From the IMG/VR virus record IMGVR_UViG_2851971941_000002: a DNA stretch of 39,096 nt. One strand, 5' to 3'. The stretch comes from a virus (taxonomy: Duplodnaviria > Heunggongvirae > Uroviricota > Caudoviricetes). How positions within the stretch are numbered: position 1 is the first letter of the stretch; the number at the start of each line of letters is the position of its first letter. The notes beneath the pieces were generated by a model, which searched no databases, had not been told where the DNA came from, and worked only from the letters and a program-made list of their open reading frames with translations. A program made the translations under genes and the position numbers. Shown here piece after piece: positions 34,313 to 35,232 of this stretch.

Positions 34313-35232
34313 AAATCCACCCCGTAAATCCAGTCAGTGTTTGTCAGGTCGAGTTTTGGTTTTCCGGCTGTCACGCCAGCCTGTTGTTTGTTACGGTTGA
34401 TTTCGAGTTGGGTCCACTTGTCGCGAAGTTTGGCCGGGCTCAGCACGTTACCAGACCAAAAGTTGTCCTGGCATGCCCAGCGGAACAGTACACACATGTC
34501 GCGGTGGTTACGTCCGTCACGTTCACGCATCAGGCGGATATCGTTAGCCCACCCTGCAAATTCGGTTTTCTGGCTGATGGCGCGATGGTCTTCACCATGT
34601 CAAACATCCACTCTGCGGCGATCAGGTCTTCTGCTGTCCCCCACTTGCTGCCGCTCTGAATTGCAGCATCCGGTTTCACCACAGGAAGATCGTTTTCTGG
34701 CTGGTCAGAGGATTCGTCAGAATTCTCGGACGAAAAAGGTTTTATATTGTCTTTTGTTAGTTTGTCTTTTGTGTTTACCTGATTCGGGTAAACGCCTTTA
34801 CCTGATTTGGGTAAACTTTTCTTACCTGATTCAGGTAAATTTACCTCTTTCAGGTAAACTTTATTTTTCTTACCTGATTCGGGTAATGTTGACCATTCAC
34901 TGACCACATTATTAATGCCGATATTCCGCCCGCTCTGAATAAAAATCCCACGCTTTACCAGAACGCTTTTTGCAGCAGAACACTTGTGCGGCAATATCCC
35001 GGTCAATTCGGAAAGTTGCTCGTTGCTCACCCAATCCAGTCTTTTATTAAAGCCATATGTTTTGCGCATGACAGCCAGGAAGACCAGAAACTGGTGCTGT
35101 GTTAATCCGGCCAGCATCACAGCTTCCAGCAACTCATTTGCAATGCGCGTATAACCATCGTCGAGATCTGCCACGCGCCGCTCCTTTTGTGCCACATCCG
35201 GCACTGGAAAATTGAATATCTCAGCAGTGTTT
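34309..35232 (-). pseudogene. O: replication initiator O, disrupted: 5' end truncated by IS911 and an internal -1 frameshift
   Basis: Frame A (34530-35204) reads ...VADLDDGY...SDQPENDLPVVKPDAAIQSGSKWGTAEDLIAAEWMFDMVKTIAPSARKPN then stops; frame B (34309-34530) continues (F)AGWANDIRLMRERDGRNHRDMCVLFRWACQDNFWSGNVLSPAKLRDKWTQLEINRNKQQAGV...DWIYGVDL, the lambda O C-terminus as recalled; the junction is a 3-A run at 34558-34560 (coding-strand AATTTGCAGGG where the lambda frame needs AATTTTGCAGGG); the O N-terminal frame continues without a start codon into the IS911 end at 35233. Confidence 0.85.
34775..34886. repeat. ori: replication origin iterons: five 17-bp copies of TTACCTGATTCGGGTAA-like palindromic sites within O, with an AT-rich tract at 34740-34774
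   Basis: Copies at 34775-34791, 34798-34814, 34822-34838, 34841-34857 and 34870-34886 (TTACCTGATTCGGGTAA, ..TTTGGG.., ..TTCAGG.., TTACCTCTTTCAGGTAA, TTACCTGATTCGGGTAA); the placement inside the O N-terminal coding region next to an AT-rich stretch mirrors ori-lambda architecture; the sequence differs from lambda iterons. Confidence 0.7.

Follow-up and report, generated by a model that had tools for sequence, protein, structure and literature searches.

A one-base deletion in the replication gene O of an icd prophage and the loss of its 5' end beside an IS911-like element

The window analysed here is a stretch of 39,096 nucleotides from a virus of the Caudoviricetes (IMG/VR record IMGVR_UViG_2851971941_000002), containing a lambda-like E. 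coli prophage at icd in which the gene for the replication initiator, O, is divided between two reading frames and abuts an insertion sequence (IS) at its 5' end. The question raised by this locus is whether the break in O is a genuine, inherited lesion or an error of sequencing or assembly and, if genuine, whether the prophage would still be able to initiate its own replication. The coordinates of the features concerned are collected in Table 1.

Reading frames of O and the composition of the O-P module

O is encoded on the minus strand, such that the bases gcaaatt at 34556-34562 of the plus strand read AATTTGC in the coding direction; the initial annotation placed a frameshift at exactly these coordinates, and direct reading of the sequence gives the same position. 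At the lesion the coding strand reads AATTTGCAGGG, as compared with AATTTTGCAGGG in the intact O genes of phages and prophages. In other words, a run of four T (the T4 allele) has been shortened to three (T3) by deletion of one nucleotide, within codon 226 of a reconstructed O of 309 codons. The N-terminal frame, for which the listed ORF is 34530..35204, proceeds to ...MVKTIAPSARKPN (...TIAPSARKPN) and thence through nine out-of-frame sense codons, LQGGLTISA, to its stop, rather than through the 16 codons originally counted after SARKPN. The protein would accordingly end at residue 225 plus nine junk residues, with the C-terminal 84 residues cut off. These are found, as had been proposed, in the -1 frame, which continues to ...GVDL-stop at 34309. 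Similarly borne out is the proposal that a single extra T restores a lambda-type reading: once this T and the five bases ATGGC missing from the 5' end are added back, an open frame of 309 codons results, reading ...KPNFAGWANDIRLMRERD, and the reconstructed protein is collinear with the phage O protein and with lambda O.

The Phage_rep_O domain (PF04492, E = 6.5e-34) occupies residues 21-115 of the reconstruction, upstream of the frameshift, and this DNA-binding domain is retained in the O remnant. The closest phage O genes are those of Escherichia phages Lambda_4C10, 4A7, 1W, 3W, Perceval and others, at 98.1% identity over 924 nt, covering 925 nt of the subject. When aligned with Lambda_4C10, the shared sequence is interrupted by one gap column only, TTT against TTTT; a comparison with the O genes of related prophages, which had been proposed as a check, gives the same picture, the intact genes having T4 and the one gap lying at the T run.

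In its overall composition the module is of the lambda type. Besides the Phage_rep_O domain it has origin repeats embedded in the O coding sequence and, directly after O and overlapping it through ATGA, an intact P (profile match to PF06992, E = 1.6e-61). It differs from the lambda-type module in the number of origin repeats, of which there are five, against four in lambda, and in O itself, which has neither an uninterrupted frame nor its own start codon: the IS replaces ATGGC and the ribosome-binding site, and codon 226 carries the one-base deletion. The O locus is a pseudogene of the Phage_rep_O family and is filed as such, not as a working member.

Table 1. Features of the O-P region and its surroundings, in coordinates of the window
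Feature	Position	Strand	Remarks
Intact lambda-type P (helicase loader)	33611..34312	-	233 aa; ATG overlaps O stop (ATGA)
O C-terminal segment, -1 frame	34309..34557	-	FAGWANDIRLMRERDG...WIYGVDL-stop
73-aa ORF inside the O C-terminal segment	34309..34530	-	ATG overlaps upstream TGA
O remnant, N-terminal frame	34530..35232	-	starts at the IS junction (third position of O codon 2), ends at the premature TGA (34532-34530)
T3 run, site of the 1-nt deletion	34558..34560	-	AAA on the plus strand; T4 in intact O genes
Five 17-nt origin repeats (iterons) inside O	34775..34886	-	TTACCYRAAWSAGGTAA; followed by an A-rich stretch
Promoter-like hybrid site	35215..35244	-	TTGACC in the IS end, 18 nt, (TG)GATATT in O; consensus match only
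IS911-like IS3-family element	35233..37849	-	terminal inverted repeats start TGTAGTGG
ISEc21 (IS110 family)	35550..36923	-	transposase 35566..36642; inserted between IS positions 935/936
5'-truncated xis and frameshifted intE, far side of the IS	37850..39096	+	

The insertion element and the loss of the 5' end of O

In phages, O begins GGAGGAATT-ATG-GCA-AAC-ACT, whereas the window reads ...GTTGACCACTACA/AAACACT, in which the end of the IS (before the stroke) is joined to O codon 2. Only the five nucleotides ATGGC of coding sequence are lost at this junction, together with everything upstream of O: the ribosome-binding site, the genes at the cro/cII position, the repressor and gam/bet/exo, back to the truncated xis. 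In A32, an intact relative, about 7 kb separate O from xis and hold a YdaT-domain gene, a cro-like gene, an S24 repressor, gam, bet, exo and others, all of which are missing from the window. No target-site duplication is present at the IS911-like element, the flanks being TTT (35230-35232) and CAC (37850-37852), and the event was therefore an IS-associated deletion; a simple insertion is rejected on this ground and on that of the absent ~7 kb of early genes. On the far side of the IS, the annotated xis coding sequence (37802-37990, plus strand) begins inside the element, which ends at 37849, and xis is therefore truncated at its 5' end, while the frameshifted intE gives two ORFs, 37970..38509 and 38605..39096, on the plus strand. 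This int/xis pair differs from that of A32.

The element belongs to the IS3 family, the features of which are a length of ~1.25 kb, TG...CA inverted repeats and an orfA/orfB transposase with programmed frameshift. An intact 1252-bp IS3-family copy, unnamed but annotated with 'programmed frameshift', is found on plasmid pTA135, with which the window aligns in two parts: 37849-36924 corresponds to IS positions 1-935 (98.9% identity over these 935 nt) and 35549-35233 to positions 936-1252 (100% over these 317 nt), with nine gap positions in total. It follows from this split that ISEc21 occupies the sequence in between. The 5' end of O had been described as lost to IS911; the loss to an IS stands, but the element is 91.9-92.0% identical to copies labelled IS911 by PGAP, as against 98.9-100% to unnamed IS3-family copies and ~88.6% to ISEc52. 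What the 1252-bp intact relative shares with IS911 are the orfA/orfB transposase made by programmed frameshift and IS911-like inverted repeats; what separates the element from IS911 are repeats that start TGTAG, where those of IS911 start TGAAG, and the state of the window copy, which is split by ISEc21 and degenerate. Judged by its sequence, and with nucleotide identity of about 95% or more taken as the mark of IS911 in the strict sense, the element is probably IS911-like rather than IS911 proper. At 37769-37774, after the orfA ATG (MKKRNF..., minus strand), the window has six A where the nearest genome, B1172, has seven, a further frameshift in an already broken IS that may be real or a homopolymer error.

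The join between IS and O is not confined to the window. An 81-nt query across it matches over its full length in 80 records (79 genomes); elsewhere its IS part and its O part align as two separate matches, with the break at 35233/35232. In IMG/VR, all three of the T3 contigs that reach far enough upstream have the same junction, the fourth ending short of it. The junction also creates the promoter-like hybrid site of Table 1, the only such site within the 1.9 kb from 33500 to 35400; its direction is that of O'-P and of the adhesin gene farther on.

Distribution of the short T run

The T run was surveyed with an 81-nt query centred on the site against complete E. coli records. The T3 allele matches at 100% identity in 81 of them. 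A further 3,131 records fall in the band of 95-99% identity, in which, among the matches listed, every row that takes in the full query spans 82 nt and is hence T4, such that about 97% of the E. coli records with this O region have T4. In IMG/VR, four contigs show the T3 pattern, as compared with at least 120 that show T4. Twelve genomes match the O region at 100% identity over its full 932 nt. Carriers of T3 were isolated from humans, a cockatoo, a musk deer and a bandicoot, and include hybrid Nanopore and Illumina assemblies of ST1193 strains; in three of the genomes (FDAARGOS_536, MCJCHV-1 and B1172) the RefSeq annotation made by PGAP already labels the gene 'replication protein, frameshifted'.

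Were the T3 run an error of sequencing or assembly, the true sequence would be T4 and O would be intact downstream of the IS. Single-base errors of run length do happen, and the one-base difference between the window and its nearest genome in the A7 run inside the IS means that differences of this type may occur in this assembly. Runs of three or four bases are not error-prone, though, and an error would have to recur identically in all 81 records, from many laboratories, hosts and countries and with hybrid assemblies among them, and again in the four IMG/VR contigs. Moreover, the allele follows one lineage, which the IS/O junction also defines. The presence of T3 in so many independent complete genomes and contigs means, therefore, that it is a real and inherited mutation. 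The initial annotation had held an error to be possible, if not the obvious explanation; this caution is now settled, since the 81 records and four contigs effectively refute an error, which, from the sequences compared, appears so improbable as to be excluded for practical purposes.

Within this lineage a group of eight ST1193 strains stands out (MCJCHV-1, MS10858, MS10711, MS10860, MS8320, MS8324, 09-02E and AVS0096), in all of which the full O query is covered in a span of 909 nt, as expected if a 23-bp deletion accompanies T3. Inspected directly, MCJCHV-1, the ST1193 reference strain, has the IS/O junction and T3 and lacks one origin repeat: in ST1193 genomes the 23 bp are missing between origin repeats 4 and 5, leaving four iterons, and the deletion site lies at the direct repeats AATCAGGTAAA (window 34775-34814 against MCJCHV-1 locus 6424-6454). 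The possibility that the 23-bp and 1-nt deletions, 24 nt in sum, together restore O is rejected, for the ~225 nt between them are read out of frame and contain several stops, and O is thus not rescued in ST1193. The ST1193 genomes with the allele were assembled from Nanopore and Illumina reads, and the region is catalogued as 'Prophage 2', questionable or partial and situated downstream of icdA (PMC11488385 supplement); the O match of MS10858, at 1,232,347-1,233,255, falls within the published Prophage 2 coordinates (PMC11488385). This prophage shares with the window the IS/O junction, the T3 frameshift and the P protein and, in MCJCHV-1, the position of the inverse-autotransporter gene. It differs in the further 23-bp deletion and in its published form, which is 29.7 kb with sitABCD, whereas the window version keeps a full lambda-like late region (PMC11488385). 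The five-repeat form of the window is found in 13 records and is closest to B1172, TUM13066 and similar genomes. Among the genomes and contigs inspected directly and the matches listed, none was seen to have T3 without the junction or the junction without T3. The T3 allele with the IS/O junction is a clean marker of the lineage.

Replication, selection and the state of the prophage

Initiation at the phage origin requires rightward transcription as well as O, and the lost upstream region is the place of the rightward early promoter in lambdoid phages. As for O itself, its function would be expected to be lost by analogy with lambda genetics, in which the C-terminus is needed, since the lambda alleles Oam8 (205 aa) and Oam205 (294 of 299 aa) are classical, replication-null alleles (PMC6022878). 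With a truncated O that has no start codon, no ribosome-binding site and no upstream region, the prophage therefore cannot initiate its own replication; nor can it undergo normal repression, induction or excision. The earlier view that replication initiation is very likely inactive is supported by the one-base deletion and the IS-associated 5' loss together, and the function is almost certainly dead. Even so, the two O fragments and P might still be expressed at a low level by way of sequence elements, namely the predicted promoter-like site, the in-frame GTG codons near the 5' end of the O remnant and the TGATG described below.

A programmed -1 ribosomal frameshift, or termination and reinitiation at the TGATG, would on a functional reading give an active O, whole or in two pieces. 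It is certainly the case that the TGA of the shifted N-terminal frame overlaps the ATG that opens the C-terminal 73 residues (TGATG, 34532-34528, minus strand), and that the promoter-like site points into O. This reading is nonetheless very hard to sustain: the frameshift site, G AAU UUG, does not have the canonical X XXY YYZ form of a slippery heptamer, the surrounding and downstream RNA (116 nt) folds no better than shuffled sequence (MFE -27.6 kcal/mol against a shuffle mean of -33.4, z = +1.6), and the split is not kept among homologues, being confined to the 81 T3 records as against ~3,130 with T4, and to four IMG/VR contigs as against at least 120. Programmed frameshifting is rejected on these grounds. 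Moreover, O has no ATG or ribosome-binding site, and in lambda the absence of only the last five residues of O is enough for a null (PMC6022878). The TGATG overlap, which the frameshift has brought about, is regarded as chance because the wild-type sequence already contains both of its elements, though in different frames, and its likeness to a coupling signal is probably fortuitous. Selected inactivation, in which the frameshift is a natural suppressor of 'replicative killing' or of P toxicity and not neutral decay, is less remote than this but still unlikely. On such a reading the IS-associated deletion would have removed the repressor and excision functions and put O'-P behind an IS-derived outward promoter, residual O-P expression would fire the origin within the chromosome, and the loss of O would be required for the lysogen to survive; selection, if true, would explain why 35 kb of a prophage intact in other respects hold no other indel. 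In lambda, O-P expression that escapes repression in a prophage unable to excise is indeed lethal, and laboratory survivors of replicative killing carry insertions or deletions in O (PMC6022878). The hybrid promoter-like site, a consensus match, lies at the IS/O junction, and P is intact and is toxic when expressed without O. The chance that one random indel in 35 kb should fall in the 924-nt O remnant is about 0.026, although this figure is post hoc and comes from a single event. Against selection stands the fact that the deletion also took the O start codon and ribosome-binding site, such that O was probably already dead, and that no genome with one lesion alone was identified among those inspected or listed. 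The likeness to the lambda O amber and replicative-killing-resistant O indel mutants of the Hayes laboratory extends to truncations or indels in O, a non-excisable prophage and no initiation at the phage origin, but those mutants arose under laboratory selection following thermal de-repression (PMC6022878), whereas the window allele is natural, has become fixed in a lineage and gives no evidence of having been selected. Whether the O lesion was selected against lethal in-situ replication is the only question here that is even mildly interesting.

The remainder of the prophage is well preserved. Over 35,134 bases, positions 100..35232 of the window are 99.53% identical to the A32 prophage, which has kept int, xis and its early region intact, with 163 mismatches and one gap, which is the T of O; no indel falls in P, the nin region, Q or the genes for lysis, terminase, head and tail. 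The mismatches gather in gpJ (72, window 4000-6000), the inverse-autotransporter gene (38, 31000-33000) and O (26, 34000-35232), in what look from the sequence like mosaic or recombined patches, and outside these clusters there is hardly any difference from A32 across the 35 kb. Between P and the nin region, at 28373-33361, lie a gene for an inverse autotransporter of 1302 aa (intimin/invasin-like, minus strand) and an alpha/beta hydrolase gene (plus strand), in the place that ren occupies in lambda; their presence also in the intact relative A32 indicates that both are phage cargo. In the lysis region, iss, for a bor-like serum-survival lipoprotein, lies at about 23962-24255 on the plus strand, as annotated in A32 and B1172. 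Outside the window, between intE and icd, the B1172 locus (37267-39641) has genes for an AAA-family ATPase and an HNH endonuclease beside the integrase, an arrangement that we take to resemble a Septu-type defence pair. A scan of the whole window against Rfam gave no RNA family at the gathering score.

The overall emerging picture is very probably one of inherited decay, in which a one-base deletion and the IS-associated loss of the start, ribosome-binding site, promoter and immunity and early region have made O a pseudogene and the icd prophage replication-dead. The 1-nt deletion, passed on vertically, truncates O after its DNA-binding domain, and the deletion associated with the IS911-like element has taken the elements needed to express it, along with the immunity region, leaving a prophage at icd very probably unable to initiate its own replication. 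This is an ordinary pseudogene of prophage decay, already known in that public annotation flags the frameshift, and beyond correct annotation the finding matters little. The repressor region being absent, int and xis broken and O doubly disabled, the cargo genes are therefore now inherited vertically. In other words, an icd prophage that encodes iss and an inverse-autotransporter adhesin has become locked in the chromosome, and a shorter form of it is carried by the pandemic ST1193 clone.
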